47,398 nt of DNA from an uncultured Candidatus Saccharibacteria bacterium (GTDB lineage Bacteria > Patescibacteriota > Minisyncoccia > Phycocordibacterales > UBA9973). Shown piece by piece: positions 30,401 through 45,539 of the stretch (position 1 is the stretch's first letter; every line of letters begins with the position of its first letter). Made by a program: the position numbers and the translations under genes. The notes under the pieces were generated by a model. That model was not told where the DNA came from, did no database searches, and saw only the letters and a list, made by a program, of their open reading frames with translations. The stretch spans positions 1 to 47,398 of the forward strand of contig CAYNAO010000003.1 in assembly GCA_964395435.1 (NCBI GenBank), written 5' to 3'.

Positions 30401-32428
30401 GCTGGAAGTAAAAATGGAGCTTCTGGTGGCTCTGGTGGAGGTGGTTCAGGTGATGGTGTCGGAGGAAGTGGAATAGGTGGGCAGGGTTATTCCGGTGGTG
30501 GATCTTGGCTTAATTCTGGCGGAGGAGGTGGAGCTTCTTCTTCTGGCTACGATGGTGGAGTTAATCCTCCTGCTTCTAATGGAGGGAATGGTTTCACTAC
30601 AGACATAACTGGTTATAGTGTTTGTTATGCTGGTGGTGGGGGAGGTTTAAGGAATGGAGAAGGAACTGGTTTAGGTGTTTGTGGTGGTGGTAATGGTAGC
30701 TATTATGGTAATGACGCTACTCCTAATACTGGAGGTGGAGGTGGAGGTAGTGGTGCTTCTGGAAGTAGAAATGGTGGTTCTGGTATTGTTGTAATATCTT
30801 ATAAAACTGATGAAAGCAACGGAGTATCTCCACAATCTACTGGTGGAATAAAAACAACAGTTGGTGAATATACAATTCATAAATTTTTAAGCACTGATAC
30901 TTTTACTGTAGTTCCTGCAACTAATCCTCCTCCAAATGAAAGACCAGAAATTAATCTTAATGGTAATGATTTTATTGAATTAGAAATTAATGATACTTGG
31001 ACAGATCCAGGTTATACTGCTTTTGATGAAGAGGATGGAGATATTACTTCTCTTGTTGTGGCAGATGGTGTTGTGGATACTTCTACTTTAGGCATATACA
31101 CTATAGTGTATAGTGTAGAAGATTCACAAAATGTTCCAGCTTCAAGTAAAATAAGAACAATTTGGGTTAAAGATACTTTTAGTAATCCAAATATAGAACT
31201 ATCTTATGATAACAACGGAAACTTAATAGAAAAAGGTGAAGATCAATATGTTTGGAATTATAAAAATCAACTAATTGAATCAATAGTAAATGAAGAAGAA
31301 ATTTCATATACTTATGACCACAACGGTAACAGACTAAAAACCCAAAAAGGTAACGATAAAACATTCTTCCTAACCAAATACTACGAAATAGACCCAAGTG
31401 GTAAAATAATCAATAACATCTATGCAGGCAATCAATTACTTGCTACAATAGAAAAGGAAGGAGGATTAGTTGTTCCTTATTACATACATACAGACCACTT
31501 AAACTCTACAAACTTAATAACCAATGATAATACAGAAATAGTAAACCTTATTGATTATTACCCATTTGGAGAAACAAGAATCAAAGAAGGAAATTTTGAT
31601 TCAAAGAGAGAATACATTGGTCAAGTATATGACGAAGATACAGGACTTAATTATCTTAATGCTAGATATTATAATAATGTATCAGGGCAGTTTATATCTC
31701 AGGATCCGGTATTTCTTGTTATGGGTGATGCAAAGAAAACTGAAGAAGTCACAAAGATGAAACTAGAGAATGTTTTGATGGACCCACAGTCTTTAAATTC
31801 TTATTCTTATGCAAGAAATAATCCGATTGTTTATTCTGATCCAGAAGGAAAATTTGCACAATTGTTGCTTGGTGCTGGAGCAGGGTTGGTTGGCCAATAT
31901 GGTTATGATGTTTACAACAACATTCAAGCAAACGGGTTTAGTGCAAGTGCTTTTGTTCCAAGTTCTAGTGGTGGAACATATATAACTAGAGCAATACAAG
32001 GAGCACTTGTTGCAGGGGCTGGTATAGGAGCAAGCGCAATAACCAGCAATACTATTGGACAAGCGGCAACTGTTGGAATTGCATCAGGGTTAACTGGCGC
32101 AGGTGGTAATTATATTCTTGGACAAACAACAACATCACAATCAGTTGTAACAGATGCCGTAATTGGAGGTTTGACTTTTGGAGTAGTAAAGTCAGCTCCA
32201 TTGGTATCAGGTAGATTACCAAACTTGGGAACAGGAGCGTTTTTTGCAGGAAAACATACACAACAAAGTGCTATGCAATTAGGTGTTGATGCTGTTGCTT
32301 CTTATATTAGTTCACTGGTCGGTAGTTTCTCGTTAAATAGAAGTTATGTAAAACCAAACACGACTGTAAATAATCAAAGTTCGCATTCTACTTCTGGCCA
32401 ATTATTAAAAATTAAGAATACTCAATAA
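24488..32428 (+). CDS. secreted SpvB/TcdB-like plus RHS/YD-repeat polymorphic toxin (2646 aa) with inserted binding-like modules and a glycine-zipper C-terminal domain
   Basis: Signal peptide. SpvB-like GGLVYNFEIKTPPGRNGFNPKISLNYNS. FG-GAP/VCBS-like DINGDGL(T/I/V)D repeats. Many YD repeats (YDGLNRL, YDANGNI, YDHNGNR). RHS core end YIGQVYDEDTGLNYLNARYYNNVSGQFISQDP...NNPIVYSDPEGKF, followed by a roughly 190-aa Gly/Ala-rich tail. Confidence 0.88.
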   Translation: MQQLLHPYIKQLATFLTIVSFFLAPLAPIFAQEAISNPEQSNTEEINNTSIDTNNTNEINTGTVEESNTINQEDNLSNASNEEIPISNEEESNGLNEEPQNPEPLTNPSGGFGNDTRDLPNINLPQIDKASGGLVYNFEIKTPPGRNGFNPKISLNYNSQENDNQNIFGYGWGVDIPYIKRLNKTGIDKLYIDNYFYSSLSGELVLVSGNTYAPKVEDGKFLTYNFDGTYWTIKNKEGMIYKFGENPSARQNNTDDTKTFKWMLEETRDTNDNYIKYEYYKDEGQIYPESIIYTGNGNVDGIFSISFLRESRNDNILQNYAVFNVKTNYRINEIQTKINGNWVSKYELDYVNGDNGKRSLLSSIIESGKDETLNIVVLPALEFSYQTITSGPDFVSDFSWSSSPSQTLFTDPSYGTIIADVNNDGLPDLLESWQNQDYWYRGTYLNNGDGTWTEDENLEPPFPFAGEAPIHEFGIRAADINGDGLTDIVQSYNNGPGQSNTIQRVYINTGTSWYLNNNWEPKCFFSGWPMGDPGCRLFDINGDNLPDFVQAIGDNSWNPPITTQVYLNNGNGWNSLDNTWNIPIDLRPGVMIVDYNGDGLVDFLKGYKNPSPNPPIDIKQAYKNNGDKTWSLDSAYAPPIAFAVQTNQSALPLSTGTELADINGDGLIDILKGTETESGVHLNSGTGWYFSTSWDFGYGSAPQYTPSPVRLGDFDGDGMIDKFNSASGSSTLSRNQKKRADLMIIAENQYGGVTDIEYKATPKYVNSNGDLLNPDLPFVMMTVYQTTSNPGQGNPNIINTYLYEGGDYYFNNNLDKRFSGFNKISENDSLNKTITYFHQGNQTDSTNGEYEDHPSKIGKAYRIESYNNSGNLYNAVVNKWDRYNQDTGRDFVKLNRKTNLTYDGDNDHKDTSEEYVFEDTYGNLTQRVFWGEVNANNDGTFTDTGNDKYTEEITYANNTNEYIVGLPAQDVVIDQNSNKVRESKTYYDGEILGNVDIGNITKVEKWKDGNNYVDTEKTYDGVYGLPITITDERGNVTNYSYDQYNLYPETITDALSYATNYLYDYSSGKVKQTITPDNLTFQTVYDGLDRVKEEKVPNLEFPFAPVVKTSYQYIDNAGAISIIQNNYLDDYNQVVIYQYFDGLNRLIQERKETEGWDEYATRDIVYNSINKIEKESLPYISNGTSKTSPTTINNLYKNYTYDANYRVVNITDSIGNTNHSYDDWKTTITDPNGNIKHYYRDAYSNLIRVDEINDTETYSTYYDWNGNQMLLKITDALGNVRNFTYDGLNRRLTAEDLHQVSDNTFGTWYYSYDDTSNLIQVIDPNDKTINYTYNDINQKLTEDDIDTTGVEITYSYNECLSGMYLLCGALMIDGSYLHYTYNSNKIVDAEFKEFDDVDMKISYHYDRQGNLIEIINPDKSEVKYNYDSAGQINYIQRKERGDWNYSYVILNIDYGPNGKISLIEYPNAIKTRYLYGNDNMYRLNKIVTTNSSNIYYGSPNTVYFYSNRYGDGNIQKYNTDWDIAHDSDTGSPNASSNISYVRTGKHSDNYYVTRGLLPFDTSTLPRDANIIDANLRVYVQNKKNIDNDGNDFITVVNTTQQNVNEINPEDFNEFGNTNNPIEGIDVSERKDITNISEYDYLTFNLNETGRSWIDKVYYTKLGLREGHDVLDDLPVSPDNETDFNEVEFRTANYSNETYDPVLEVTYTLPLPTVLQDLEYTYDANGNIIEILENSNTALSKDMTLIYDDLNRLNLVTVNNTPQGYLPYTQTFNYNAIGNILSGPAGTYVYSNNNYTNPHAPTTIFNLPANNRPVIDLTGEDFVQLVVGDTWAEPGYMATDFEDGNLTNSVNVLGDVDTNEAGVYQLVYSVLDSNNQPATNKIRTVFVRDVYTPSYMSVKTLVVAGGGSGGQASYYGSGGGGAGGLLYELDYEVFDQSYPIVVGSGGINWTNGQNSSFDNLVAIGGGRGGSLSAGSKNGASGGSGGGGSGDGVGGSGIGGQGYSGGGSWLNSGGGGGASSSGYDGGVNPPASNGGNGFTTDITGYSVCYAGGGGGLRNGEGTGLGVCGGGNGSYYGNDATPNTGGGGGGSGASGSRNGGSGIVVISYKTDESNGVSPQSTGGIKTTVGEYTIHKFLSTDTFTVVPATNPPPNERPEINLNGNDFIELEINDTWTDPGYTAFDEEDGDITSLVVADGVVDTSTLGIYTIVYSVEDSQNVPASSKIRTIWVKDTFSNPNIELSYDNNGNLIEKGEDQYVWNYKNQLIESIVNEEEISYTYDHNGNRLKTQKGNDKTFFLTKYYEIDPSGKIINNIYAGNQLLATIEKEGGLVVPYYIHTDHLNSTNLITNDNTEIVNLIDYYPFGETRIKEGNFDSKREYIGQVYDEDTGLNYLNARYYNNVSGQFISQDPVFLVMGDAKKTEEVTKMKLENVLMDPQSLNSYSYARNNPIVYSDPEGKFAQLLLGAGAGLVGQYGYDVYNNIQANGFSASAFVPSSSGGTYITRAIQGALVAGAGIGASAITSNTIGQAATVGIASGLTGAGGNYILGQTTTSQSVVTDAVIGGLTFGVVKSAPLVSGRLPNLGTGAFFAGKHTQQSAMQLGVDAVASYISSLVGSFSLNRSYVKPNTTVNNQSSHSTSGQLLKIKNTQ
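31331..31712 (+). repeat. RHS core-end segment duplicated at 32916-33297 (roughly 95% identical by eye)
   Basis: agactaaaaacccaaaaaggtaacgataaaacattcttcctaacc... matches 32916 onward with scattered substitutions. Similarity ends at gatccggt. Confidence 0.85.
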
Positions 32429-32430
32429 CT

Positions 32431-32850
32431 ATGAATATTTATAAAGCAAATAGGTTCTATACCTTACCAATATTATTTGTTCCGCTATTAGCGATAATAC
32501 CCTTATTAGAAGGAGGAGTCCCATTAGATCAAAAAAGATTGATTGGGTATTTGATATTATCAGGATTATCAATTTTATTAGCTATAATTCCATTTTTTGC
32601 AAGACTCGAAGTAGGTGTAGATTATGTAAAAAATCATTTTCTGGGATTTTGTATAAGCACAATTAAAATAGACGATGTTATTGATATAAATTATGGAAAT
32701 TTGTTCAAGGGAGGTCTTGGTTATGGAAAAGGATTAAATATCAGAGTTAGGAAGGGTCTTGGAAAAAACCACTCAATAAGTGAAAAAATTTGGGGCAAAG
32801 AAGCCATTGAACACGCAAAGCGTGTTTTGGAAAATAAACAAAATACCTAA
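32431..32850 (+). CDS. putative cognate immunity protein (membrane protein)
   Basis: Starts 2 nt after the RHS stop codon. Has two N-terminal TM helices (FYTLPILFVPLLAIIPLL and LIGYLILSGLSILLAIIPFF). The assignment rests on position only. Confidence 0.5.
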   Translation: MNIYKANRFYTLPILFVPLLAIIPLLEGGVPLDQKRLIGYLILSGLSILLAIIPFFARLEVGVDYVKNHFLGFCISTIKIDDVIDINYGNLFKGGLGYGKGLNIRVRKGLGKNHSISEKIWGKEAIEHAKRVLENKQNT

Positions 32851-32894
32851 AAAATTACTTTCTTATATTTTTTAAAAATCTTTCCTTGTTGTAA

Positions 32895-33938
32895 ATAGAG
32901 TCTAAAGCTATATACAGACTAAAAACTCAAAAAGGTAACGACAAAACATTCTTCCTAACCAAATACTACGAAATAGATCCAAGTGGTAAAATAATTAAAA
33001 ACATCTATGCAGGCAATCAATTACTTGCTACAATAGAAAAGGAAGGAGGATTAGTTGTTCCTTATTACATACATACAGACCACTTAAACTCTACAAACTT
33101 AATAACCAATGATAATACAGAAATAGTAAACCTTATTGATTATTACCCATTTGGAGAAACAAGAATAAAACAAGGAAATCTTGATTCAAAGAGAGAATAC
33201 ATAGGTCAAGTATATGACGAAGATACAGGACTTAATTATCTTAATGCCAGATATTATAATAATGTATCAGGGCAATTTATTGGTCAAGATCCGGTGTTTT
33301 GGGAATTAGGTCAAAGTGAAGATGGTAAAAAAGTATTATTAAATCCACAAGCACAAAATTCTTATGCTTATGCGAATAATAATCCAATAAACTTTAGTGA
33401 CCCTACAGGAAGAGTAGTAGATACAGCAGTAGATTTAGCGTTTATATTTTATGATGCATATAAATTAACTGAAGCTATTGTAACTGGAGGTAATGTAAAA
33501 CAAGAATTACAAGCTTTAGCATTAGATGTTAGTAGTATAGCCTTACCTGGAGTTACGGGGTTGGGGTTGGGGGTTAGGGCTGTAAATAAAGCAGATAATA
33601 TAGTAGATGCTGGACAAGTAATTAAAAAAGTTGAGAAAACTTCACAAAATACTTTAGAAGTTGGTAAGTACGCAGATGATAAAATACCAGCACGAAGTCA
33701 GGCAAGAGATTTTACAAAAGCAGAACGAGATCAAATCAATTCAATAGGAAAAAATACTGGATGTCATACTTGTGGTAACAAAATACCTGGTACAAAGAGT
33801 GGAAATTTTGTTCCAGACCATCAGCCTGTTTCTGCTACTGTGCCAAAAAATGTACCACAAAATTTGTATCCTCAATGTATTAATTGTAGTCGAGTACAAG
33901 GTGGGCAAGTTAGAAGTATACAATCTAAATTACCTTAA
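32895..33938 (+). CDS. orphan RHS C-terminal cassette: RHS core end, PT-TG-like region and a Cys-rich putative nuclease toxin; no start codon at its 5' end
   Basis: The frame is open from 32895 and encodes RLKTQKGNDKTFFLTKYYEIDPSGK...ARYYNNVSGQFIGQDP, then NNPINFSDPTGR and ALPGVTGLGLG. The tail is GCHTCG...FVPDHQP...CINCSRVQGG. The first ATG/GTG/TTG in frame is the GTG at 33294. Confidence 0.7.
   Translation: MESKAIYRLKTQKGNDKTFFLTKYYEIDPSGKIIKNIYAGNQLLATIEKEGGLVVPYYIHTDHLNSTNLITNDNTEIVNLIDYYPFGETRIKQGNLDSKREYIGQVYDEDTGLNYLNARYYNNVSGQFIGQDPVFWELGQSEDGKKVLLNPQAQNSYAYANNNPINFSDPTGRVVDTAVDLAFIFYDAYKLTEAIVTGGNVKQELQALALDVSSIALPGVTGLGLGVRAVNKADNIVDAGQVIKKVEKTSQNTLEVGKYADDKIPARSQARDFTKAERDQINSIGKNTGCHTCGNKIPGTKSGNFVPDHQPVSATVPKNVPQNLYPQCINCSRVQGGQVRSIQSKLP
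32916..33297 (+). repeat. second copy of the RHS core-end segment (homology arm of the orphan cassette)
   Basis: See 31331-31712. Same reading frame as the orphan ORF. Confidence 0.85.
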
Positions 33939-33940
33939 TA

Positions 33941-34315
33941 ATGAATATGAATATTAACTCAAAAAAAATAACTGTTGAAATCTTAGAAGTTTGTGCTACT
34001 CATAATGTTAATCCTGTATTAGTAGACAACAATCAACTAGTAGCTGTATCTGAAGGGGTTTTAGAAGGAGATTTGGTTGAAGGTGTTCGATATAATTCTC
34101 CTGAACATATGAGTGGTTGGTGGCTAACTACGGAAAAATATAATGGAGATATAAATACAATTAAGACAGAACATTTTTATCATTTATTAGAAAAAAGACC
34201 AGATTTGGTAAAATATTTGGCATTACCTTATGGATTTAGATTTTTTCAAAAAGGATATAAAGATGGTCCTGAAAAAATTTGGTTTGACGAAAAAATAGCA
34301 AAAAATGAAATTTAA
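33941..34315 (+). CDS. putative immunity protein of the orphan toxin
   Basis: Starts 2 nt after the orphan toxin stop. A 124-aa soluble acidic protein containing SGWWLTTEKY. The assignment is mainly positional. Confidence 0.5.
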   Translation: MNMNINSKKITVEILEVCATHNVNPVLVDNNQLVAVSEGVLEGDLVEGVRYNSPEHMSGWWLTTEKYNGDINTIKTEHFYHLLEKRPDLVKYLALPYGFRFFQKGYKDGPEKIWFDEKIAKNEI

Positions 34316-34482: not shown

Positions 34483-36243
34483 TTAATTCAACTCTTTATA
34501 GTCTGTTTTCAGGAACCTGTTTCTACGATTAAAACTGGCAATCGTGTGTTTTTGAATATTAAGTTTAATTTGATTTTTTCGTTCTTCGTGTTCAATTTTG
34601 TCTCTATTGAGTGTTAATATATATTGAAAATCTATATTTTTTTCTTGTTCAGCAAGAAAGTTTAGGCTTTGGACTAATGTGTCTTGATCTACATCAAAAA
34701 TATTATCATGTATAAGAAACATTGGATGGTGTTGTTTTGTGTTTTTGTTTGTTAATAATCCTATGTCATAAATAAATACTTTTGTTCTATCAACACTATG
34801 ACTTCCATCATCAGGGATTCGTAAATCTAATTTGATAATCTGCTTACTAGAGGATGTTTTAATAGTTTTAATATCAAAGGATACTTCTACATTACCCATA
34901 ATGTATTCATGTATTTCAGCAAGAGTTTTATTGAACCCTTTTATTTGATTTGTGGTTTCAAAAATTTTTGTATCGAGTTCAGAAAATAGGTTGTCTTTTT
35001 TTAATTTTAAAATATCAATTTCTCTGTCTAGTCGCTCGTATTCTCCAAGATTAGATTGAGTCGATGCAAGTTCGTCTTTTCTTTTTGTGTAAGAATAAAA
35101 GCTTTCTTTTATAATACTTAATGAATCTGTCTTATCAATACTTATAAGCATTCCAGCTCTTTTTTCATCTAAGTTGTTTAGGTCTTCTTGGATCTTCTTA
35201 ATTTCTGATTTAATTTCCTCAGCTCGTTCGTTAATAAGCAAGTTCTGATATTTCTCAATTTTTTTCTTAAAGTTGATAACTTCTGTTATAGATTTTGAAA
35301 CAATTTCTCCTAAACCATTTTTAAATTTATCATAAACTATTTGTATGTCGCTTATATTTACATTTTCAACTTTAGGCATAGATTCAATCCGTTTTAGTTC
35401 GTATTTTAGTGCTATTTGTTTGATTCTTAATTGCTCAATAGTAGAGTCAATTTTTACAAGAGCTTCTTGGTTTTGTTGGAAAATCGGCTCAGTCTTAAAT
35501 TTATTTAAAGACTCTTCTGCTCTTGATAACTCTAATTCTAATGCATTAATTTCAGCTTTTACATCGGAAACTTTCTTTTTCCCAGAATCAGTTAATCTCT
35601 TTTTTAAATGATTCTGTGTTTGTGATTTTTCTTCAACATCTTTAAAAATACTTTTAATTTCTTTAACGAAAGAAGGATTAATACCAAAAAGATAAAGATG
35701 TGTTTTTATTAAATCTGAATTTGGTATTTTTGATCTAAGGTCGTAACAATTAACTATATCTTTAAATTCAGAATCTTCGTCTCTAATTAGTGGACCTAGT
35801 AGCTCTCTAAAGCTTGGTCTTTCTATTTTTTCGTCTTTGTTTTTTTCATAAAAAAGATTAGTTAGATATCTTAATGCATCATTAGAGTCTTTGTATAAGG
35901 TAAGTTCTCCATCAACTTCTATAGAGGGCTTGTTGGGTTCATGTATTGTTCTTTCTATTGTTACTTTCTTGTTATTAATATCTAAATCAAGACAAATTTT
36001 TGTCTCATAAGAAAATTTATCAAAAGGAATTTTCATAACTCTGCTTGAGTCTGCATCTTTAAAAAGACAGAAATTTATAAATTCTACTGACATTGATTTC
36101 CCCACACCATTTGTTTTTTTGTCTTTTCTAGTTTTTGTTTCGTTTTCAGAAACTTTTTCACCAAGAATAAGATTAACCCCATCCCTGAATTCAATAGGAT
36201 CAAATGTTTGAGGTATTGAATATAGTTTTTTTAATTTAATCAT
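34483..36243 (-). CDS. coiled-coil ABC/SMC-like ATPase (DUF2326-like; ABC-three-component system ATPase)
   Basis: N-terminal Walker A KKTNGVGKSMS, a long central coiled coil, and C-terminal Walker B-like HHPMFLIHDNIFDVD. It is the last gene of a three-gene minus-strand operon with 4-nt and 10-nt junctions. Confidence 0.65.
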   Translation of the reverse strand: MIKLKKLYSIPQTFDPIEFRDGVNLILGEKVSENETKTRKDKKTNGVGKSMSVEFINFCLFKDADSSRVMKIPFDKFSYETKICLDLDINNKKVTIERTIHEPNKPSIEVDGELTLYKDSNDALRYLTNLFYEKNKDEKIERPSFRELLGPLIRDEDSEFKDIVNCYDLRSKIPNSDLIKTHLYLFGINPSFVKEIKSIFKDVEEKSQTQNHLKKRLTDSGKKKVSDVKAEINALELELSRAEESLNKFKTEPIFQQNQEALVKIDSTIEQLRIKQIALKYELKRIESMPKVENVNISDIQIVYDKFKNGLGEIVSKSITEVINFKKKIEKYQNLLINERAEEIKSEIKKIQEDLNNLDEKRAGMLISIDKTDSLSIIKESFYSYTKRKDELASTQSNLGEYERLDREIDILKLKKDNLFSELDTKIFETTNQIKGFNKTLAEIHEYIMGNVEVSFDIKTIKTSSSKQIIKLDLRIPDDGSHSVDRTKVFIYDIGLLTNKNTKQHHPMFLIHDNIFDVDQDTLVQSLNFLAEQEKNIDFQYILTLNRDKIEHEERKNQIKLNIQKHTIASFNRRNRFLKTDYKELN

Positions 36244-36467
36244 TTTTTATAAATATATGGTTCAGCAAATTCGACCAGACCTGTTTGATATAAAAAAATA
36301 AGCGAAAAAATAACTTGCCTGTGGCTTATAGATCCTAATTCTTGTTTTAAGTTTAAAATTATTTCGTCTAGCATTAATTTTTGTTCTTTAGCCTTTGTCA
36401 GTTTTTTTAATACCAAAAAACCAATATATGGAGATGATGTTTTTATTTTTTCGTCTTTATTTATCAT
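36240..36467 (-). CDS. small middle component of the three-gene ABC system
   Basis: 75 aa. Overlaps the ATPase start by 4 nt (atga). The size and position fit the ABC-3C middle component, but no motif was verified. Confidence 0.5.
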   Translation of the reverse strand: MINKDEKIKTSSPYIGFLVLKKLTKAKEQKLMLDEIILNLKQELGSISHRQVIFSLIFLYQTGLVEFAEPYIYKK

Positions 36468-36476
36468 AATGAATTT

Positions 36477-37430
36477 TTAATTAGGAAACACATTACACTT
36501 TATTAATTCGTCTAATAGATAGAATCGGATCGCTTGATAATCATGTTTTTTACCATCTCTACTAATCTCAGTATCAAAATACTCTGTTAGGTTAGCTAAA
36601 GCTTTTGTTGGGTTACCATCGGCTTGTGTTAGAAAAATATCACTTTTTATTCTTAAAAAATCTCTAATAAATTGAACTTTCACGGAATCTAGGTTAAGTT
36701 TTTCATCTACTTCATTTCGTGCTAAAGCATACCTTGGTAATAAATCGACAATTTGTGTTTTTAAGAATGTTGATTCCGCAGAAAACCTGTGTTCAATTTT
36801 CTTTTGTGGATCAGGTTCCTCGACCCATTTTTTTATATCAGCTTCTTTGTTGTTGCTTAAAAAAACAACAAGATCGGCGATTGTTTCAACTTCGTTTGCT
36901 AAAACTAGTTCGCTTTTGTTTTCTTTCTGACTATCAAACTCTTCTTTGAGAATTGATAAAATTTCGTTTATTTTTTTAGGGTTAAGGAGTCTAATAAGTG
37001 CAATTAAATCAGATAAACAAATAATATCTTTTGAATAATCAAAATCAACATTCTCAGGTCCTACAATTTTACTTTTAGTATTGGGTTTTTTGCTTGAAAT
37101 TAATATAAATTTTAATGATTTAAATTTCTTAAACAATTCATGTTCATTAAATTTTTTAATTGTTTCTTTAATTTTTTTAGTTGTATTTTCGGAAGTCACC
37201 TGTATTGAGACTTTTTTCTCTATGTCTCCAAGATCTACAGAAGGAAAATTTGTTTTAATAATATTTAAATTAACTAAGTTTAAATCGAAAATTTTATTAA
37301 GTATATTACAAAAAAAATCTTCAGAATAGCTATTTATATCAGTAAATCCATTTGCATTATTTATTTTTACTGAAGATTCGAGTCTAGAAAAATAACTAAT
37401 GATTTCATTAATAAGATTATGTCTTTCCAT
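36477..37430 (-). CDS. SMEK-like N-terminal domain protein (first, effector-type component of the ABC-3C-like operon)
   Basis: N-terminus MERHNLINEIISYFSRLESSVKINNANGFTDINSYSEDFFCNILNKIFDLNLVNLN...FPSVDLGD..KKVSIQVTSE matches my memory of the SMEK domain consensus. The C-terminal half is unassigned. Confidence 0.5.
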   Translation of the reverse strand: MERHNLINEIISYFSRLESSVKINNANGFTDINSYSEDFFCNILNKIFDLNLVNLNIIKTNFPSVDLGDIEKKVSIQVTSENTTKKIKETIKKFNEHELFKKFKSLKFILISSKKPNTKSKIVGPENVDFDYSKDIICLSDLIALIRLLNPKKINEILSILKEEFDSQKENKSELVLANEVETIADLVVFLSNNKEADIKKWVEEPDPQKKIEHRFSAESTFLKTQIVDLLPRYALARNEVDEKLNLDSVKVQFIRDFLRIKSDIFLTQADGNPTKALANLTEYFDTEISRDGKKHDYQAIRFYLLDELIKCNVFPN

Positions 37431-37473: not shown

Positions 37474-38817
37474 TTACAAAGATGGATTTTGATTAAATTT
37501 CAAACTAATCTCCTTGTCTCTAATCTCAACTTTTCCTCGCAAGCAACTCAATAGTTCTCGTTTTTCATACCTTGTTCCATTTTTAAGGATATGTTTTGCG
37601 TAATTCTTGATATCTGCTTCTATTGGTCTATTATCAAATTCTGTTTCTCTTCCTAATACTGTGTAGCTAAATTGTCTATATTTGTTTATCTCATATTCAA
37701 TCTTTTGCTTCATCCCAATTTCATCAAGATCTATTTTATCTATCAGTCTAATTAGTTGCTCTAAAAGATTTTCTTCTCTTAACGCTCCTTGTTTGCAATA
37801 TCTATCTGCCGAATGACTACAATGATAATACACATATCTATGAGACTTGCCATTTTTACAATGTTTGAATTTTTCTTCAGCCGTTATTCCTGATCTACAA
37901 GCACCACAGAAAAATAATCTTGTGAATTCAAATTCATTTGTTCCTGGGTGTCTACGAGATGGAGCATTTATATTTGCTCGTGCTTTTAAATATAATTCTT
38001 TAGTAATTATAGGATCATAGGAACCCTTGTACCATTTACCACTATTGGTGGGGTATTCAAATTCTCCATAATAATAAGTATCTTTGAGTATGGTAAATAT
38101 TGCACTTAATGCAATTCTTTTTCCAGACCTTGTAGTAAAATTCTTTTCTAGATTAAGCCATGTTAATAAATCTCTACCACTATAATTTTCATATGCTACT
38201 TTCTCAAACATTTCTTTTATAATTGGAGCTCTGACTTCATCGATCAATACTCGTTTTTGTCCCTTGTCTGCATATTTATCATGAATGTATCCAAGAGGAG
38301 ACATTCCAGGTCTAAACCCCATCTCGCATTTTGCTCTAAGTCCTCGTTTTACATTTTCTCCCTTGTGATCATTTTCAAGTTTTGCTTGTGAACATAAAAT
38401 CATAAGTAAAAACTTTTCGTTTGGTGAATTTGTAAATCTTTGTCCGTGCGTTCGTATATCAATTAGCATTCCTGCATCCATTAAATCAACTACCTTACCC
38501 AAGTCTCCTGCATTTCTTGAAATACGAGAAGGATCCCAAGCAATGAGTCCGCTAAACTTTCCATTTCTAATATCTTCTATGATTGTCTGAAATACTGGTC
38601 TTTGTCCTGATTCTTTTGCTGAATGACTTTCTTTTCTGACTTCTACGATATACAAACCCTCTTTTTCTGCCATATCTTTCATCTCTTTGATTTGTGAATC
38701 AATAGACAAAGCTTGCAATTCATCTTGCTCGGTTGATTTACGAGCGTAAAGACAGTATTTAACCGGGATTGTTAAATTGATCTTTTCTTGCGTTACATTA
38801 AGTATATTTGTTTGCAC
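37474..38817 (-). CDS. large serine recombinase (resolvase catalytic domain, recombinase domain, zinc ribbon)
   Basis: YCLYARKSTEQDE supplies the catalytic Ser context, followed by SRISRN. The recombinase domain includes GFRPGMSPLGY. The zinc ribbon is CGACRSGITAEEK...YYHCSH. GTG start. Confidence 0.85.
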   Translation of the reverse strand: MQTNILNVTQEKINLTIPVKYCLYARKSTEQDELQALSIDSQIKEMKDMAEKEGLYIVEVRKESHSAKESGQRPVFQTIIEDIRNGKFSGLIAWDPSRISRNAGDLGKVVDLMDAGMLIDIRTHGQRFTNSPNEKFLLMILCSQAKLENDHKGENVKRGLRAKCEMGFRPGMSPLGYIHDKYADKGQKRVLIDEVRAPIIKEMFEKVAYENYSGRDLLTWLNLEKNFTTRSGKRIALSAIFTILKDTYYYGEFEYPTNSGKWYKGSYDPIITKELYLKARANINAPSRRHPGTNEFEFTRLFFCGACRSGITAEEKFKHCKNGKSHRYVYYHCSHSADRYCKQGALREENLLEQLIRLIDKIDLDEIGMKQKIEYEINKYRQFSYTVLGRETEFDNRPIEADIKNYAKHILKNGTRYEKRELLSCLRGKVEIRDKEISLKFNQNPSL

Positions 38818-38907
38818 AACAACACAATGGCGGAATTGAGCTTATAAGTCTATATGCTTAAAGTGGGTAACTAGCTTATTTAATTAATTTTCTATATATT
38901 TAATAGT

Positions 38908-39714
38908 ATGAAAGTTTTAACGTTTTTATCGAAAAAGGATATAGAAAAATTCATTGATGAGGAGGCTTATGGTGTTATTGAGTACCTTCTTCGCAAGGTA
39001 GCTTTTTCTCAGCCAGAAGTTAAAGATAAATCAGAATTATCTGGAATTCAGATTACTAAAGAATTTTTGGAAGATTGGATAGCTCAAGCATGTAATCTAA
39101 CAAAAGTCGGTGCAGGCAACTATCCTATTGATGTTTATTCTAAAAATAAATATGGCATAGATGTTAAATTCCTAACTGCAAAAATAAATAAAAATGGAGA
39201 CTATACTAATAGTTATTCAAACGAAACCTCTCTTAGTCAAAATTTCAAAATAGCTGGTCTTGATTTAGACCAGATGTTTGCAAGTAAAAAATACGAAAAT
39301 ATATTATTGGCTTGGATAAAAATATTAGAAGCGAAGATTTTAATCCCAATAAATGATTTTAATTTAAAAAAGGTTTATTACTTTATTTTTATAAGAGCTG
39401 GTAATAAGGTATCTCTAGCTATTGCAGATGTAAATAATAAAGAGATAAGAAACCTAAAAACTAATCGCTCTACAGATACATCTGTATTTGTGCAAAATTT
39501 TATTGAAGACAGATATGGAAATGTAAAGATATATAAAAGTAAAAAAAGAATGGAATTAAGGGTTTTTCCAAAAGCATTGGAAGAAGATAATAAATTAATA
39601 TCTTGGAACTTTGAAAACTTTTATCCCGATATAATTTCTTTAAGAGATGTTGTTAAAGATAAAAAAATAGAACAACATTCAAAAAAACAATTTAAAAAGT
39701 TTTTTGGTGAATAA
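38908..39714 (+). CDS. putative type II restriction endonuclease (PD-DxK motif)
   Basis: NYPIDVYSKNKYGIDVKFL gives PD...(12 aa)...DVK. The gene abuts the C5 methyltransferase gene tail to tail with 0 nt of spacer. Confidence 0.5.
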   Translation: MKVLTFLSKKDIEKFIDEEAYGVIEYLLRKVAFSQPEVKDKSELSGIQITKEFLEDWIAQACNLTKVGAGNYPIDVYSKNKYGIDVKFLTAKINKNGDYTNSYSNETSLSQNFKIAGLDLDQMFASKKYENILLAWIKILEAKILIPINDFNLKKVYYFIFIRAGNKVSLAIADVNNKEIRNLKTNRSTDTSVFVQNFIEDRYGNVKIYKSKKRMELRVFPKALEEDNKLISWNFENFYPDIISLRDVVKDKKIEQHSKKQFKKFFGE

Positions 39715-41292
39715 TTATTCCATCGCTTTCATAATCTGTTTTGCTATTGCTTCTATAACCGGTACACTTACTGAGTTTCCAGCTTGTTTGTATAGGGCTG
39801 AGTCTGCGATATTAGGTAATATGTATTCTTTAGGGAACCCTTGTAACCTAAAACATTCAAGGGGAGTTAATTTTCTTATACCTTTCTTGTCTTTAATGAT
39901 AGGAACATTGTGTCCACCCATACCCATATTTGCTGTGAGGGTCGGACAAACTCCGCTTTTATTTTCACGAACATATTGCCTACGCCATTGGTAAACCCTG
40001 CCTTCTTCTTTGACATCTTTCTTTAATCTATCAAATAATGGTTTACCATTATAGTAATATTTTTCAGGTACGTTTTTCTCTAACAAGTCAGTGATCCTCT
40101 TTGTTAGTTTTACAGGTTCAGGGAAATTAAACCTTTCGGCATATTCTTTGTTTTTGAAACCAACTATATATATACGTTCACGATTCTGGGGAACATTACC
40201 ATATTCCATGCTATTTAAGACTTTGTACTTAACATGATAGCCTAAGTCTAGCAATGTCTCTTCAATTACTTTAAATGTATTTCCACCGTCATGACTTTTT
40301 AAGTTTTTAACGTTCTCGAGCATGAATCCCTCAGGTTGTCTTGCTTGAATAATTTTTGCAATATCAAAAAATAAATTACCTCTATTTTTAGGATCGTCGA
40401 ATCCTTTTCTGTATCCAGCAATAGAAAATGCCTGGCAAGGAAATCCTCCTAATAAAAAATCAAAGTCTGGTAAATCGTTTATCCCAATTTTCCTTATATC
40501 TTCTACAATAAGTTTTGAGTCTGTAAAATTTAAATCATATGTTTTTTTGCAAGGTTCATCAAAATCATTCGCAAACACAGTTTTAAAACCAGCATTTTCA
40601 AATCCCTTTCGAATACCACCCACTCCAGCGAATAAATCTATAGTCTTGAAGCCGTGTTTCGTTTTATTCTTAGGGTTTATCTCTTTCTCTGTTTTTACAT
40701 CACGAATTACTTGCACAACAACACCTCTTATTTCAACGTGGGTTCGGAATAATGGCTTCATGTCTGGATTTCTAGGTTGTAATCTTATTTTCTTATCTTC
40801 TCTGTATATTTTCTTTAATGTGGCTTCATTATCATCAATAATAGCGACAACAGTCTGTCCGTTTTCTGCCACCGACTGCTTTTTGATTACTACAATATCT
40901 CCATCATATATACCTTCATCTATCATACTATTTCCAACTACTCGCAAAGCGTAGTGGTCTTTGGCACTTTTAATATTTGGATTGATTATTGATATTGTGT
41001 CCTCAATATTTTCTATTGCCTCAATAGGTTGACCAGCAGCTATTCTTCCAACAATAGGAATTTCTATAACTGATTTTATTTCTTTCTTTGGCGTAATGCT
41101 TCTAGGTGAGTTTTCAGATTTAGATAAATAACCCTTTTCTTTTAGGGAAGCAATATGTTCATGAACAGTAGAAATAGCTTTAAGTTTTAATTTTTTTCTT
41201 ATCTCATCAATGGTTGGAGATATACCATTCTCATTTATGTAAGTATTAATGAAGTCAAAAACTTCTTTTTGCTTTTTTGTTAATGTTGACAT
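39715..41292 (-). CDS. LexA-like repressor (wHTH plus S24 peptidase) fused to DNA (cytosine-5) methyltransferase
   Basis: Residues 1-199 contain LTKKQKEVFDFI..NGISPTIDEI (LexA DNA-binding domain), VGRIAAGQP (Ala-Gly cleavage site), VVGNSMIDEGIYDGDIVVI (Ser nucleophile) and ATLKKI (Lys). Residues 217-525 carry C5-MTase motifs DLFAGVGG, GGFPCQAFS, ENVKNL, QNRERIYIVG and GNSVSVPV. The start is moved to the ATG at 41292. Confidence 0.85.
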   Translation of the reverse strand: MSTLTKKQKEVFDFINTYINENGISPTIDEIRKKLKLKAISTVHEHIASLKEKGYLSKSENSPRSITPKKEIKSVIEIPIVGRIAAGQPIEAIENIEDTISIINPNIKSAKDHYALRVVGNSMIDEGIYDGDIVVIKKQSVAENGQTVVAIIDDNEATLKKIYREDKKIRLQPRNPDMKPLFRTHVEIRGVVVQVIRDVKTEKEINPKNKTKHGFKTIDLFAGVGGIRKGFENAGFKTVFANDFDEPCKKTYDLNFTDSKLIVEDIRKIGINDLPDFDFLLGGFPCQAFSIAGYRKGFDDPKNRGNLFFDIAKIIQARQPEGFMLENVKNLKSHDGGNTFKVIEETLLDLGYHVKYKVLNSMEYGNVPQNRERIYIVGFKNKEYAERFNFPEPVKLTKRITDLLEKNVPEKYYYNGKPLFDRLKKDVKEEGRVYQWRRQYVRENKSGVCPTLTANMGMGGHNVPIIKDKKGIRKLTPLECFRLQGFPKEYILPNIADSALYKQAGNSVSVPVIEAIAKQIMKAME

Positions 41293-41325
41293 ATTGCTTA
41301 AATATATTGACTTTGCTACAATTTG

Positions 41326-41355
41326 ATTATATCCGAAACAAAACCGAAAGTCCAA
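41326..41355 (-). promoter_or_regulatory. promoter of the LexA-MTase gene, with a direct repeat in its spacer
   Basis: On the minus strand: TTGGAC (41355-41350), an 18-nt spacer, then TATAAT (41331-41326). The spacer contains ccgaaac-aaaa-ccgaaag (plus-strand reading, 41333-41350). The 85-bp region is shared with the divergent KAP gene. Confidence 0.5.
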
Positions 41356-41377
41356 GCCGGATATCCACAATAAATAT

Positions 41378-44239
41378 ATGTTAACGCATAAAATCCAAAA
41401 AATATTTGATTTAAAACCATCGAATTATAAGAAATTATTTAATGAATCATATTTTCCTCGCAGTGTTTTTTGGCTATTAACGATCTCGGTTACTTTATCT
41501 TATTTTATTTGGAATTTTTTTGAGGGTATTTTTTCTAATAATTTAATGAGGGATTTGCATAAAATAAATCATTCAGTACTTTTTATTTCTTCTATATTTT
41601 TGATAGTAATACTAACTGGATTATTTGTATTTTTTATTAAACCAAAAGAACAACTTAAAACACAAAAAATTCATAATCAACCATCTTGGATATTTTACAC
41701 TTATTGGGGAATGATAAACTCTTTTTTACTTACTTCATTATATCTAAGACTAGAGCAACAAAAACTATTCTGGGTATCAATGCTTATACCATTAGTCATA
41801 ATTAAAGTTAAATTTCTCTATGAAATTTTTTATCAAGAGAAAGATCTTTCTTTTAAGAATTTCGCCTCAGGTTCTGTTGGTCTAGATGGTGACAAATTTG
41901 AATTTAAGCAAACAGCTGAGCATACTACTGATGGATTATTAAAATTAAATAATTATATAAATGTTGTTGGTCTGTATGGAGGCTTAGGATTTGGTAAATC
42001 ATCTTATGCCCGAATGGTGCTTGAAGGATTTGATTATAAGAAAACTCTCTATACTTACATTTCTTTGACTGAAACAAACGAAGCCAAAGATTTCTCAAGT
42101 CTTTTCTCAGAACGATGGCTTGAGACTCTTTCTGAGAGGTATCCAAAAATAGATATTACTACCTATTTACCTTTTATGGATTCTATCTTACGAGAATCTG
42201 GTAATAGTATTTTTTCTGGCATACTAAAAGCGGTTTCTTTTTTTGATAGAGGTCTTCATAAGACAAAAGCTTTATTTTTTGATGAGTTTTATTCAAAAAA
42301 AGAAAAGTTTACGAGTAATAATGTTGGTAAACTTTTTGGTAACATCCCAGAAATTAAAGAATCTCTTTGGGTTATACTTATAGATGAACTAGAAAGAGCA
42401 CAACTTGATGAGATTTACCGTGTCGTTGAAATCGTTGAACGCTTTAAAAATGAAGGTAGGTCTGGATTACCAACAAAACTTCTATTTTTATTCTGTATCT
42501 CAGAGCCAGACCTTGGTAATTATCTTGATTCGTTTAATGAAAAGGATACAAGAGCACCATTGCTTAAAACTTTCTTTTATCAAGACCCGAAGAGTATTTC
42601 TCATAAAATTTTCTTACCACCAGTTAAACCTGCTATAAAAGAAAAATTTGTCATAGAACTTTTAAATACCCTTATTGAAAGAGAACAAATAAAACATCAA
42701 GGAAATGTATCTCCAAATTTAATATTGGATCCCTCAAGTTCATTCATGAAGGATGAAGATGCCTTAAATCATATTCTTTACTTGATTATTGAGGAAAGTT
42801 CCCCAAGAACAATTTCTAGAATTGTAAGTGCTTTAGACTTTTTTTATGGGTCATTTAAAAATAAAGCCGGAGAATTAGACAAAAATGCTATTCGTTTTAG
42901 TGATATTATCGCTCTTGAATATATAAAAATTAAATATCCATACCTTATTGACTTTTTCACAAAAACGATAGGTGTTCTCGTAAGTCAATCTGATAGAAAT
43001 AATTTGAATGCTTATCTTATTCATCAACATCTAAAGGAAAACAAAGTAGACTTAATTGGTTGGGTTGAATCTGTTACAGATAAAAAATTCACAGATAAAG
43101 AAAAGCCAGAAATATTAAACATGATTGGATTAGTTATGCACTATTACTTTGATTTTATCAAAGAAGATCGATACAAAGAGAATAAAATTGATTATGTTAA
43201 TAGTACTTCTTATCCAGAAAAAATGAGAGATTATTTGACACTAATATCTGGGGGGACAGAAACTCCGTATAGAAAAAGTAATGAACTCTATCAGCAACAC
43301 CAAGAAGGCAAACTCAAAATAAAAGAAATAAGTAACGATGACTTAATTAGTTACGCTAGATTTATTTATGATGTTACTAATACAAAACAAGAGATGAATG
43401 TTGAAGTTCTTAATGAGCTTACAGATAGAATTATTAATAAAACTATTGCGCCAAAACCTTTAGCAATGGGTGATAGTATCTATGATGACGCTTTATATCA
43501 ATTTATATTCCAAATAGTTAGTATTGCAGAAAAAGAACGTAACAATGATGTTGCGAGTGAACATCTCAAAAAGGCATTCGAGTGTCTAAGAAAGGTTCTT
43601 TCATCATCTATCAATGTCGGTGCAAAATATATAATCTTAAATTCACTTTCTAATAATGAGCGTGGAAGTGGTAGCTCTGTGCACATGAGCCTTATTGCAA
43701 CATTTAATAAACTATATAAATTCTTTCCTGAAGGAATCAAAAAACTAATTAACGCAGTGTTTTTAGATGGTCAAACAAGATATTTCAAGAAAGGTGCTAG
43801 AGGTGTGATTTATAAAACAGAAGAAAATTTCTTCTTCTTGATGTATCAAACATGGAGTGGTTTAAAAGATAATATAGAAGAAATAAGTCTTATAAGAAAA
43901 GCTGCAGAAAGAGATCTCAAAAAATATCCTGATGCAATTAAGATCTATTGGGATCGCTACCCTTATCAAAAGAATTGGGAATCCTCTCAAGATGTTCTTA
44001 GGGAAGATAGGTTTTTCTTTAATAGTGATAAAAACAGTGATTTATATATGCCGATAAATACTCTAATTAAAGTTACCAAGCAAGCAAATATAAAAGATGA
44101 AGCGATCATTTCAAAGATGAAGTTCTGGTCAAAAATAAAAGATGACCCTGCTATTAGAGAGAGGTTTACGATAGCAGACGATCCATCTACCCTAAAATCA
44201 TTCCTAATAAAAGTTGGTCTGTTAACTGTGGGTAACTGA
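41378..44239 (+). CDS. KAP-family P-loop NTPase with four N-terminal TM helices
   Basis: Four hydrophobic helices lie in the first 150 aa. Walker A is VVGLYGGLGFGKSSYARMV and Walker B is WVILIDELERAQ. A long helical C-terminal region follows. Confidence 0.65.
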   Translation: MLTHKIQKIFDLKPSNYKKLFNESYFPRSVFWLLTISVTLSYFIWNFFEGIFSNNLMRDLHKINHSVLFISSIFLIVILTGLFVFFIKPKEQLKTQKIHNQPSWIFYTYWGMINSFLLTSLYLRLEQQKLFWVSMLIPLVIIKVKFLYEIFYQEKDLSFKNFASGSVGLDGDKFEFKQTAEHTTDGLLKLNNYINVVGLYGGLGFGKSSYARMVLEGFDYKKTLYTYISLTETNEAKDFSSLFSERWLETLSERYPKIDITTYLPFMDSILRESGNSIFSGILKAVSFFDRGLHKTKALFFDEFYSKKEKFTSNNVGKLFGNIPEIKESLWVILIDELERAQLDEIYRVVEIVERFKNEGRSGLPTKLLFLFCISEPDLGNYLDSFNEKDTRAPLLKTFFYQDPKSISHKIFLPPVKPAIKEKFVIELLNTLIEREQIKHQGNVSPNLILDPSSSFMKDEDALNHILYLIIEESSPRTISRIVSALDFFYGSFKNKAGELDKNAIRFSDIIALEYIKIKYPYLIDFFTKTIGVLVSQSDRNNLNAYLIHQHLKENKVDLIGWVESVTDKKFTDKEKPEILNMIGLVMHYYFDFIKEDRYKENKIDYVNSTSYPEKMRDYLTLISGGTETPYRKSNELYQQHQEGKLKIKEISNDDLISYARFIYDVTNTKQEMNVEVLNELTDRIINKTIAPKPLAMGDSIYDDALYQFIFQIVSIAEKERNNDVASEHLKKAFECLRKVLSSSINVGAKYIILNSLSNNERGSGSSVHMSLIATFNKLYKFFPEGIKKLINAVFLDGQTRYFKKGARGVIYKTEENFFFLMYQTWSGLKDNIEEISLIRKAAERDLKKYPDAIKIYWDRYPYQKNWESSQDVLREDRFFFNSDKNSDLYMPINTLIKVTKQANIKDEAIISKMKFWSKIKDDPAIRERFTIADDPSTLKSFLIKVGLLTVGN

Positions 44240-44288
44240 TTACACAATTCTTTTAACTTAAGCTAAAGTATGAAAATACCTATAAAAA

Positions 44289-44297
44289 TGGTATAAT
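44289..44297 (+). promoter_or_regulatory. extended -10 promoter element
   Basis: TGgTATAAT, 50 nt after the KAP stop codon and about 30 nt upstream of the GC-rich structured segment. Confidence 0.45.
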
Positions 44298-44325
44298 TTC
44301 TTTACAACTGAATCAGTAGCCTAAC

Positions 44326-44514
44326 CCTTAAGTTTCCTTAAGGTATGGTGAAGTTAAAACCGCTACAGTATGGAAGACTCCTCGTCAGAGTCACTGTAGC
44401 GGTCGTGTACGGGAAACTGTATACGGGTGACCGCAAGGTCATCGCAATGGCGAGGAGTCTTCTGTCTCAAGACTCAATACTCCTTGCTAATTATTATTAG
44501 TAAAACCGCTACAG
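44326..44514 (+). ncRNA. GC-rich structured RNA or leader of unknown class
   Basis: Hairpin ccttaag-tttc-cttaagg. accgctacagt (44359-69) pairs with actgtagcggt (44393-403). gaagactcctcg (44373-84) pairs with cgaggagtcttc (44451-62), a crossing (pseudoknot-type) interaction. Hairpin gtgacc-GCAA-ggtcat. A second copy of taaaaccgctacagt at 44499-44513 abuts the next ATG. Confidence 0.45.
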
Positions 44515-45137: not shown

Positions 45138-45539
45138 ATGCAAGGAAAAGAAATACCAGAAGAGACCTGGAATCAGTTCGTTGAAGAGCTTCAAAAGAAT
45201 TTTGTATCTATTGCTCATACTTGTTCAAAATTAGGTATTGAAAGGCGTAGTTATTATTACAAGCGTTTGAAAGACCCTGATTTTGCTTCAAAGGTGGACA
45301 CTCTTTTCGAGAGAGTACAAGTCCCTATAGCAGAAGAAATGTTGCGTGCCGATGTTATGGAACGCAAGGCTTGGGCTATAAGATTTACCTTGGAAAGATC
45401 AAGCAAAAAATGGAGTCCAAAGTTCACACAAGAGTATCTTAATGAACTAGATTACAGAATCGCTTTAATAGAAGGAAGAGTTGAGCATATTCCATATGAA
45501 GAAGAAAAAGATTCAGAGGAAGAAATGCCAACCCAATAA
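45138..45539 (+). CDS. phage-like HTH protein (terminase small-subunit-like N-terminus)
   Basis: SIAHTCSKLGIERRSYYYKRLKDPDFASKVD resembles the HTH plus ...DPEF... signature common in phage small terminase and regulatory proteins. The tail is acidic. Weak call. Confidence 0.3.
   Translation: MQGKEIPEETWNQFVEELQKNFVSIAHTCSKLGIERRSYYYKRLKDPDFASKVDTLFERVQVPIAEEMLRADVMERKAWAIRFTLERSSKKWSPKFTQEYLNELDYRIALIEGRVEHIPYEEEKDSEEEMPTQ

Follow-up and report, generated by a model that had tools for sequence, protein, structure and literature searches.

Do three adjacent genes at positions 38908-44239 of contig CAYNAO010000003.1, from an uncultured Candidatus Saccharibacteria bacterium, work together as one defence module? 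They encode a putative nuclease, a fusion of LexA with a cytosine-5 (C5) methylase, and a KAP-type P-loop NTPase. A preliminary description, made from the letters alone, had read them as a compact trio in which the fusion and the KAP gene share an 85-bp control region. Comparison of the whole stretch of 47,398 nucleotides (the window) with related loci led us to a different reading, which we consider likely: a mobile, self-regulating type II restriction-modification (R-M) cassette lies beside an unrelated KAP gene, having inserted once into the promoter region of that gene.

Co-occurrence was checked in 80 fusion loci from species-representative genomes, in which the fusion has at least 577 matches, and in 51 other KAP loci, whose relatives of the window protein are 28-82% identical. 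tblastn detected KAP in 0/80 fusion loci, and the LexA-methylase fusion was present in 0/51 KAP loci. The 268-aa nuclease was found in 4/80 fusion loci, and a relative of the large serine recombinase that flanks the nuclease gene in the window was found in ~10/80. One other locus (L133/L134), reached through the 90%-identity cluster of the window methylase, has the same four-gene order of recombinase, nuclease, fusion and KAP. L133 is collinear with window positions 37696-44331 at 76% nucleotide identity. Being collinear and syntenic, it contains the one insertion, passed down to a sister lineage, and adds no independent association. The idea of a recurring three-gene module therefore has to be given up, since the trio recurs in this orthologous locus only.

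The history of the locus can be read from the closest cassette-free relatives of KAP, in L083 (82% amino acid identity), L081 (69%), and L089 and L085/L086 (~54%). In all of these, a serine recombinase is directly divergent from KAP across 100-130 bp. The window DNA matches L083 in the recombinase gene (38173-38619), and then only from 41366, 12 bp before the KAP ATG. The intervening 2.5 kb is an insertion, and a promoter-like TTATTT-N16-TAAAAT, common to L083 and L081 upstream of KAP, has been displaced. A TTATTT at 38877 was considered as a remnant of this native promoter and rejected, since alignment with L133 and L022 identifies it as cassette sequence.

These alignments also account for the gap between fusion and KAP. 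The mechanically called methylase open reading frame (ORF) begins at a TTG (41370). The 525-aa homologues align from an ATG at 41292, and the conserved promoter falls inside the TTG extension, so the ATG was taken as the start. The gap between the methylase ATG and the KAP ATG (41378) is thus 85 bp (41293-41377), the length given in the preliminary description. Its interpretation as a shared control region did not stand: because homology to cassette-free KAP loci resumes only 12 bp before the KAP ATG, the whole stretch is the promoter of the cassette itself.

All four genes are maintained, as judged by the ratios of nonsynonymous to synonymous substitution (dN/dS) between the window and L133, which are lowest for the fusion (0.022), followed by KAP (0.076), the nuclease (0.11) and the recombinase (0.20), at dS values of 1.4-2.7 that are near saturation. 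For KAP (dS ~1.4), this corresponds to strong purifying selection. Since the native upstream DNA has been removed and yet KAP is under purifying selection, its transcript must start in or cross cassette DNA. It is therefore conceivable that, in this lineage only, KAP fell under the LexA operator, such that damage or infection would release the methylase and a membrane KAP effector together, as two layers of response. The operator lies 30-45 bp upstream of the KAP ATG, in a region almost base-for-base identical between the window and L133. The native KAP upstream is gone, no plus-strand promoter was detected within ~390 bp, and KAP is still in use in both insertion-bearing lineages, transcribed from or through the cassette. 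However, the methylase promoter itself accounts for all conserved intergenic bases, and same-strand read-through from the nuclease promoter would be an equally good source of KAP transcript. The arrangement also goes back to a single insertion event, with no such pairing in the 80 fusion loci or the 51 other KAP loci. KAP homologues occur in many unrelated contexts, and comparable KAP proteins defend as single genes (PMC13552941). We regard such a coupling as quite unlikely. A composite of the two readings, in which the cassettes are damage-sensing restriction systems with RecA-dependent repressor cleavage and KAP was in addition captured under the same operator in this lineage, is less probable still.

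Nuclease and fusion form the cassette proper. The preliminary description had the two genes converging with zero spacer, and the nuclease TAA (39712-39714) does meet the methylase stop codon (TTA on the plus strand, 39715-39717). A convergent ORF lies within 100 bp of the fusion in 57/60 full-length fusion loci, with a median gap of 0. These ORFs fall into ~7 families, of which one (22 members) matches RE_Bsp6I, another (20) the C-terminal domain of NgoFVII (NgoFVII_C) and a third (7) PDDEXK_5; the remaining families, among them that of the window nuclease, have no Pfam model. The upstream neighbours of the fusion are nearly all unrelated between loci, Vsr (7 loci) being the one recurring exception. 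Because the convergent slot recurs while the upstream neighbours are unrelated, the element is best described as a two-gene cassette with interchangeable nucleases, and the comparison supports nuclease and LexA-methylase as a genuine functional pair. The Vsr genes, which encode a T:G mismatch endonuclease, lie divergently upstream of the LexA-methylase in 7/80 loci (for example, L003:1636-2043), a position that fits an enzyme producing 5-methylcytosine.

The 268-aa protein gave no match in Pfam, NCBIfam, PADLOC or PDB sequences, and its 96 homologue clusters are all unnamed. Alignment of 32 homologues bears out the PD...DxK motif (PID...DVK) that had been picked out in the protein, with D75, D85 and K87 invariant and P73 nearly so; E106 is also invariant. 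The AlphaFold2 model has a pLDDT of 93 and a pTM of 0.90. A homologue converges with an abutting C5 methylase in L022, L051, L054, L072, L133 and L136, and in Methanococcus maripaludis (L135, JACDUJ010000001.1:725982-734821), where a 51%-identical nuclease homologue faces a plain 317-aa C5 methylase. Since the nuclease-methylase pair exists without LexA in Methanococcus, the LexA fusion can be regarded as an addition to an R-M pair, and the archaeal homologue indicates cross-domain transfer of that pair. A type II restriction endonuclease is thus the probable identity of the 268-aa protein.

The fusion protein scores 64 bits with LexA_DNA_bind, 109 bits with Peptidase_S24 and 317 bits with DNA_methylase (PF00145), and its methylase part 350 bits with TIGR00675. 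Residues 1-199 score 202 bits with the NCBIfam lexA equivalog model (TIGR00498), whose cut-off is 111. In a scan of PADLOC-DB v2, the methylase was the sole component with a match (MTase_II, 428 bits); the nuclease and KAP had none, which supports, for these two, the earlier expectation that known models would not cover the trio. More than 120 fusion clusters (90% identity) were found, all of ~525 aa with the three domains and bearing names from the candidate phyla radiation (CPR). The matches in species-representative genomes are nearly all from Patescibacteria and include a complete TM7i genome (CP075337.1), and tblastn against a phage collection gave only methylase-domain matches for the fusion, among the matches listed. 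Public databases label members just 'LexA' or 'cytosine methyltransferase'. We found no description of the LexA-methylase fusion in the literature searched; an earlier mention in work on the SOS network of Patescibacteria is possible. The LexA-methylase R-M cassette is, in sum, common in the tiny CPR (Patescibacteria) bacteria.

The N-terminus of the fusion is predicted to be a complete, cleavage-competent LexA, with a helix-turn-helix (HTH) and an S24 domain. All of 62 fusions keep the Ala-Gly site and both catalytic residues, Ser and Lys, unchanged, even where the identity of the S24 domain falls to 53%. Because site and catalytic residues are invariant while the domain diverges, selection appears to act on the predicted self-cleavage. 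This bears on a simpler role for the LexA part, that of a repressor and dimerisation module resembling a controller (C) protein, which would set methylase level and the timing of establishment with no response to RecA. Precedents exist in the HTH-bearing C5 methylases of SsoII, EcoRII, Ecl18kI and ScrFI, which repress themselves without a protease (references in PMC3874152). The invariance of the Ala-Gly, Ser and Lys residues in all 62 fusions, despite the divergence around them, instead points to selection on cleavage, and we judge the protease-independent role unlikely.

Both the minus-strand promoter TTGGAC-18-TATAAT and the direct repeat ccgaaac-aaaa-ccgaaag in its spacer (41333-41350), as first described, are present; our promoter scan returned the same methylase promoter as TGGACT-17-TATAAT. 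Alignment of 61 fusion upstream regions revealed a common architecture, consisting of TGTGGATAAC, a few bases, cTTGAC, TTTCGG-ttttt-aTTCGG, tTATAAT and AATTGTAGC. The strict form TTCGG-N6-TTCGG occurs in 38/61 fusion promoters, and variants in the others. One exact copy in 47 kb is not significant alone (48/100 shuffles give at least one). The repeat is nonetheless real, since 37 other loci have it in this place in the promoter and it is almost absent from the rest of ~1.2 Mb: the strict repeat occurs once per locus, at the fusion promoter, with just three other matches in the ~1.2 Mb of flanks. These matches, in L018, L024 and L070, are intragenic or in a terminator hairpin and were dismissed, leaving no second operator in the 47-kb window or in the ~1.2 Mb of locus flanks.

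Divergent fusions have a different repeat in the same place, with a period of 11 bp (10 bp in TM7i), and the half-site varies with the recognition helix. Helices STVHEH, STIHEH and STVHQH pair with TTCGG, STAHYY and STAHHY with TTCTA, SGVYQH with TTCTG or TTCGG, and STIHQH (TM7i) with TTCGT. Of all the observations, this co-variation speaks most strongly for binding of the repeat by the LexA domain. Together with the conserved position and period, it makes a genuine operator the natural interpretation of the spacer repeat first noted in the window.

Two further conserved elements were observed in this region. A DnaA-box-like element, TGTGGATAA(C), the reverse complement of TTATCCACA, lies a few bases upstream of the -35. 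It is perfect in 26/61 loci and present in relaxed form (TGTGGAWAH) in 34/61, far above chance, including L003-L031 and others, and could link the expression of the methylase to DnaA or serve as an end marker of the cassette. The element AATTGTAGC lies in the methylase leader ~8 nt 3' of the -10 (41312-41320, minus strand, in the window), and at the equivalent position in many loci.

The co-evolution of helix and operator bears on whether the fusion could instead be the general SOS repressor of CPR bacteria, with the methylase an orphan or epigenetic add-on and the downstream gene incidental. Its first 200 residues pass the threshold of the NCBIfam lexA equivalog, many members are named 'transcriptional repressor LexA' at NCBI, and the family has a very wide distribution across Patescibacteria, extending to a complete TM7 genome. 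Yet a single operator was found in the 47-kb window, and a single one per locus in the ~1.2 Mb of flanks, in every case at the promoter of the fusion itself. Helix and half-site switch together among close relatives, a change that a private operator accommodates readily and a regulon of many genes only with difficulty. The abutting convergent nuclease-type gene in 57/60 loci and the unrelated flanks, as for a mobile cassette, likewise speak against a general repressor, and at least some CPR contigs encode a stand-alone LexA. The one in L127, near a distant KAP homologue, has a different promoter, in which the repeat was not found. We hold a general SOS repressor to be very unlikely. Since helix and operator co-evolve fast and each locus has a single operator, the comparisons argue for a private circuit, not the SOS regulon of the cell.

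What the cassette recognises can be approached from the methylase and from site avoidance. The methylase domain is 69-90% identical to that of the window regardless of the partner nuclease, and because it stays similar whichever nuclease follows, a common target is suggested. Bsp6I recognises GCNGC and NgoFVII GCSGC. In the pooled fusion loci, GCNGC is the most depleted of 128 short palindromes (1321 observed versus 2066 expected, observed/expected ratio (O/E) 0.64, z = -16). Its O/E is 0.50 in the window and 0.87 in the KAP-locus CPR controls, and GCGC and CCGG have an O/E of ~1.0. The target of the cassette is probably GCNGC or a subset thereof. Separately, the whole window avoids ACGT (11 observed versus 45 expected, O/E 0.25), and also GTAC (0.56) and CATG (0.58), which suggests further restriction systems in the source genome or its phages.

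Taken together, these observations make the following mechanism the most likely one for the preferred reading. Positions 38908-41369 would constitute a mobile two-gene cassette, in which a PD-(D/E)XK-type endonuclease gene converges with that of the LexA-fused C5 methylase. A LexA dimer would bind TTCGG-N6-TTCGG between the -35 and -10, an operator identified by comparison, and hold down methylase synthesis. RecA filaments would arise from DNA damage, or from cutting of under-methylated self DNA by the partner nuclease, and the S24 domain would then cut between A86 and G87. Cleavage would free the HTH, the methylase promoter would open, and the methylase level would climb. Stronger methylase transcription would also run antisense into the nuclease gene and lower nuclease levels. 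Such read-through is expected because the two genes abut without a spacer and a terminator is not close by: on the minus strand, the one terminator-like hairpin is ~440 nt inside the nuclease gene. As a result, a type II system would have its own restriction alleviation, or a self-damage feedback loop. The cassette would have inserted once between recombinase and KAP, in an ancestor of the source genome and L133, replacing the native KAP upstream.

Several points weigh against this account. No plus-strand sigma-70-like promoter was found within ~390 bp upstream of KAP (40989-41377), and the account offers no source of its own for KAP transcription after the insertion. The fusion could also control other genes. 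The control loci for GCNGC may derive from genomes that also carry the cassette, and the depletion is an indirect indication of the target. In a Foldseek search of the nuclease model against the PDB, restriction enzymes ranked top (NhoI, EcoRV, DpnI, HincII), none of them significant (E ≥ 0.1). Finally, L022 has the same recombinase-nuclease-methylase junction without KAP, and the recombinase and cassette may therefore have moved as one unit.

The window's KAP protein scores 19.8 bits with the Pfam model KAP_NTPase (PF07693), against a cut-off of 20, and ~45 of its 104 homologue clusters carry PF07693. Because it falls 0.2 bits under the threshold, we use the label 'KAP-type'. Its Walker motifs hold across 25 KAP sequences, with G201, G204, G206-K207-S208-S209 (GxGKSS) and D336-E337 invariant, and the C-terminal region of ~500 aa is helical. 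The structural model (pLDDT 82) gave weak matches in the PDB to AAA+/STAND ATPases (Cdc6/Orc1, plant NLRs, RdrA; E 5e-4 to 1e-2), and a PDB sequence search gave no match. Four N-terminal transmembrane (TM) helices had been proposed. The model does show four long helices there (26-53, 65-87, 104-125 and 131-151); in three of these an uncharged 19-residue window is present, so that the TM character of the four is plausible, not proven. No hydrophobic window was found after residue 160 (maximum Kyte-Doolittle value 0.97). TM helices inserted within the NTPase domain are a trait of the KAP family (Aravind et al. 2004, as relayed in PMC13552941); since all four helices precede Walker A, the window protein lacks this classical feature. 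Single-protein scans of metagenome and viral contigs detected no KAP relatives, an alignment-based scan then succeeded, and tblastn against the phage collection gave nothing for KAP.

What recurs beside KAP is the large serine recombinase. It adjoins KAP in L081, L083, L085/86 and L089, and adjoins cassettes in L001, L002, L004, L011, L022, L037, L069 and L132. A 2026 study (PMC13552941) reported that serine recombinases mark defence loci, and that single proteins composed of TM helices, a KAP NTPase and a C-terminus of unknown function protect against phage alone, with Walker B required. KAP is probably a stand-alone defence gene and an unrelated neighbour of the cassette. It would belong with the recombinase, as a membrane-associated defence or exclusion gene acting by itself in a recombinase-marked hot spot.

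Other genes are found in the same surroundings. In L087 (1-6000), a serine recombinase and a 55%-identical KAP flank a different C5 methylase without LexA (293 aa) and a 359-aa ORF, an independent insertion at the same recombinase-KAP junction. On the other side of the window recombinase is a three-gene ABC-3C system (34483-37430, minus strand), comprising an SMEK_N protein, an MC6 middle component and a DUF2326 ATPase, with PADLOC matches to Aga_REase-PNTD and PDC-M68B. The L087 methylase and the ABC-3C system point to the neighbourhood of the recombinase as a landing site for defence genes.

The DNA upstream of the recombinase contains a motif, GTTACC...CTAGACT...TTGCGTCAT(C/T)AATG, which is present in the window (38820-38885), L022, L069, L081, L083, L089 and L001/L002. 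The DNA past GTTACC differs by locus, comprising KAP, R-M cassettes or other genes, and the motif may be the recombinase promoter or an attachment site. A ParB_N-N6/N4 methylase with a small HTH_Tnp_1_2 protein is frequent in KAP/recombinase loci (L081, L083, L085, L089, L120, L127, L132), which suggests that these loci share a common integrative element. A 133-aa ORF in the window (45138-45539) has a weak similarity, 34% over 65 aa, to a gene adjoining the ParB-methylase in L132.

The window, a chromosomal contig, derives from a CPR/Patescibacteria bacterium, and the relatives of both fusion and KAP bear CPR names. Housekeeping genes (S2, EF-Ts, MreB/C, TGT and a ClpB-like ATPase) are followed by a variable island containing a histidine kinase, a PLD-family protein, an RHS/SpvB protein, the ABC-3C system, the recombinase, the two R-M genes and KAP. 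The RHS/SpvB/FG-GAP protein has 2646 aa and is followed by small ORFs, including an Imm33-like immunity gene (24488-34315, plus strand). The order RHS, small ORFs, recombinase and KAP is repeated in L085:1-4227. The features of the locus are collected in Table 1.

Table 1 Features of the recombinase, cassette and KAP locus, in window coordinates
Feature	Position	Strand	Residues	Description
Large serine recombinase	37474-38817	-	447 aa	Pfam Resolvase + Recombinase + Zn_ribbon_recom
Left junction	38818-38907			Recombinase-side conserved ...AATGGCGGAA...AGTCTA...GGTAAC, then cassette-borne nuclease-upstream AGCTTATTT...TATATATTTA; from alignments with L083, L081, L089, L133 and L022
Putative type II restriction endonuclease	38908-39714	+	268 aa	PD-(D/E)XK-type motif D75/D85/K87; unnamed family
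LexA-Dcm (LexA-C5 methylase) fusion	39715-41292	-	525 aa	Pfam/NCBIfam domains
Fusion, C5 methylase	39718-40650		215-525	Motifs FAGVGG, PCQ, ENV, QNRER and GNSV intact
Fusion, S24 autoprotease	40708-41058		79-195	Predicted cleavage site A86-G87; catalytic S122, K160
Fusion, winged HTH	41098-41292		1-65	
Methylase promoter	41326-41355	-		-35 TTGGAC 41350-41355; -10 TATAAT 41326-41331
Putative operator	41333-41350	-		Direct repeat cTTTCGG-tttt-gTTTCGG; core TTCGG-N6-TTCGG, 11-bp period; occupies the -35/-10 spacer
DnaA-box-like element	41361-41369	-		TGTGGATAT; family consensus TGTGGATAAC; right junction, last conserved element of the cassette
KAP-type P-loop NTPase	41378-44239	+	953 aa	Walker motifs; not in the cassette
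KAP, P-loop domain			~177-440	Walker A 201-208; Walker B D336/E337

CPR/Patescibacteria are, to our knowledge, largely without CRISPR. They are thought to depend on restriction systems, and have tiny genomes with limited repair capacity. If the mechanism is correct, a methylase joined to a self-cleaving LexA would link sensor directly to antidote, such that breaks, even those made by the partner, raise methylation. The cassette would then amount to restriction alleviation in a type II form, and to a new mode of regulation for a pair of the toxin-antitoxin kind. With hundreds of species, a co-evolving operator and interchangeable nucleases, the fusion family is well suited to experiments. That the apparent trio can be traced to one insertion in a defence hot spot marked by a serine recombinase also advises caution in reading defence-island neighbourhoods.

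Known systems resemble the locus in different respects. M.SsoII, M.Ecl18kI, M.EcoRII and M.ScrFIA are C5 methylases with a regulatory N-terminal HTH that represses their own promoter (references 169-172 in PMC3874152). Like these, the type II C5 methylase of the cassette has its own DNA-binding N-terminus and predicted self-repression, with no separate C protein. The cassette differs from the SsoII type in that its N-terminus is a full LexA with S24 and its operator a direct repeat in the promoter spacer. Because its genes are convergent, this operator, unlike that of the SsoII type, cannot act on the nuclease promoter. What is new here relative to known HTH-methylases is the full LexA, predicted to be self-cleaving, and the direct-repeat operator.

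Among LexA proteins, the alphaproteobacterial LexA box is a direct repeat, GTTC-N7-GTTC, with an 11-bp period (PMC8565304). The fusion shares with LexA/SOS repressors the winged HTH and S24 domains, the Ala-Gly/Ser/Lys triad, predicted autoregulation, and an 11-bp direct repeat with a TTC core. Unlike them, it is joined to an enzyme and carried in a mobile cassette, its operator was detected at no promoter but its own, and helix and operator change rapidly in evolution. The window's KAP protein resembles EF_KAP and the F-plasmid PifA (PMC13552941) in its layout of putative TM helices, a KAP-type NTPase and a large C-terminus, encoded beside a serine recombinase. It differs from them in its CPR host, in giving no sequence match to PADLOC models, in the position of its helices, all N-terminal and not within the NTPase, and in its recombinase, which is large (447 aa, Recombinase and Zn-ribbon), not small.

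Compared with the Bsp6I and NgoFVII R-M systems, homologues of those nucleases fill the same convergent slot behind near-identical LexA-methylases, whereas the window nuclease comes from a different, unnamed family and its site is deduced. In the SOS-linked alleviation of type I restriction, the restriction subunit is proteolysed. The outcome proposed for the cassette, less self-restriction on damaged or newly synthesised DNA, is alike; in contrast to the type I systems, the cassette would derepress its methylase through cleavage of its own repressor domain.

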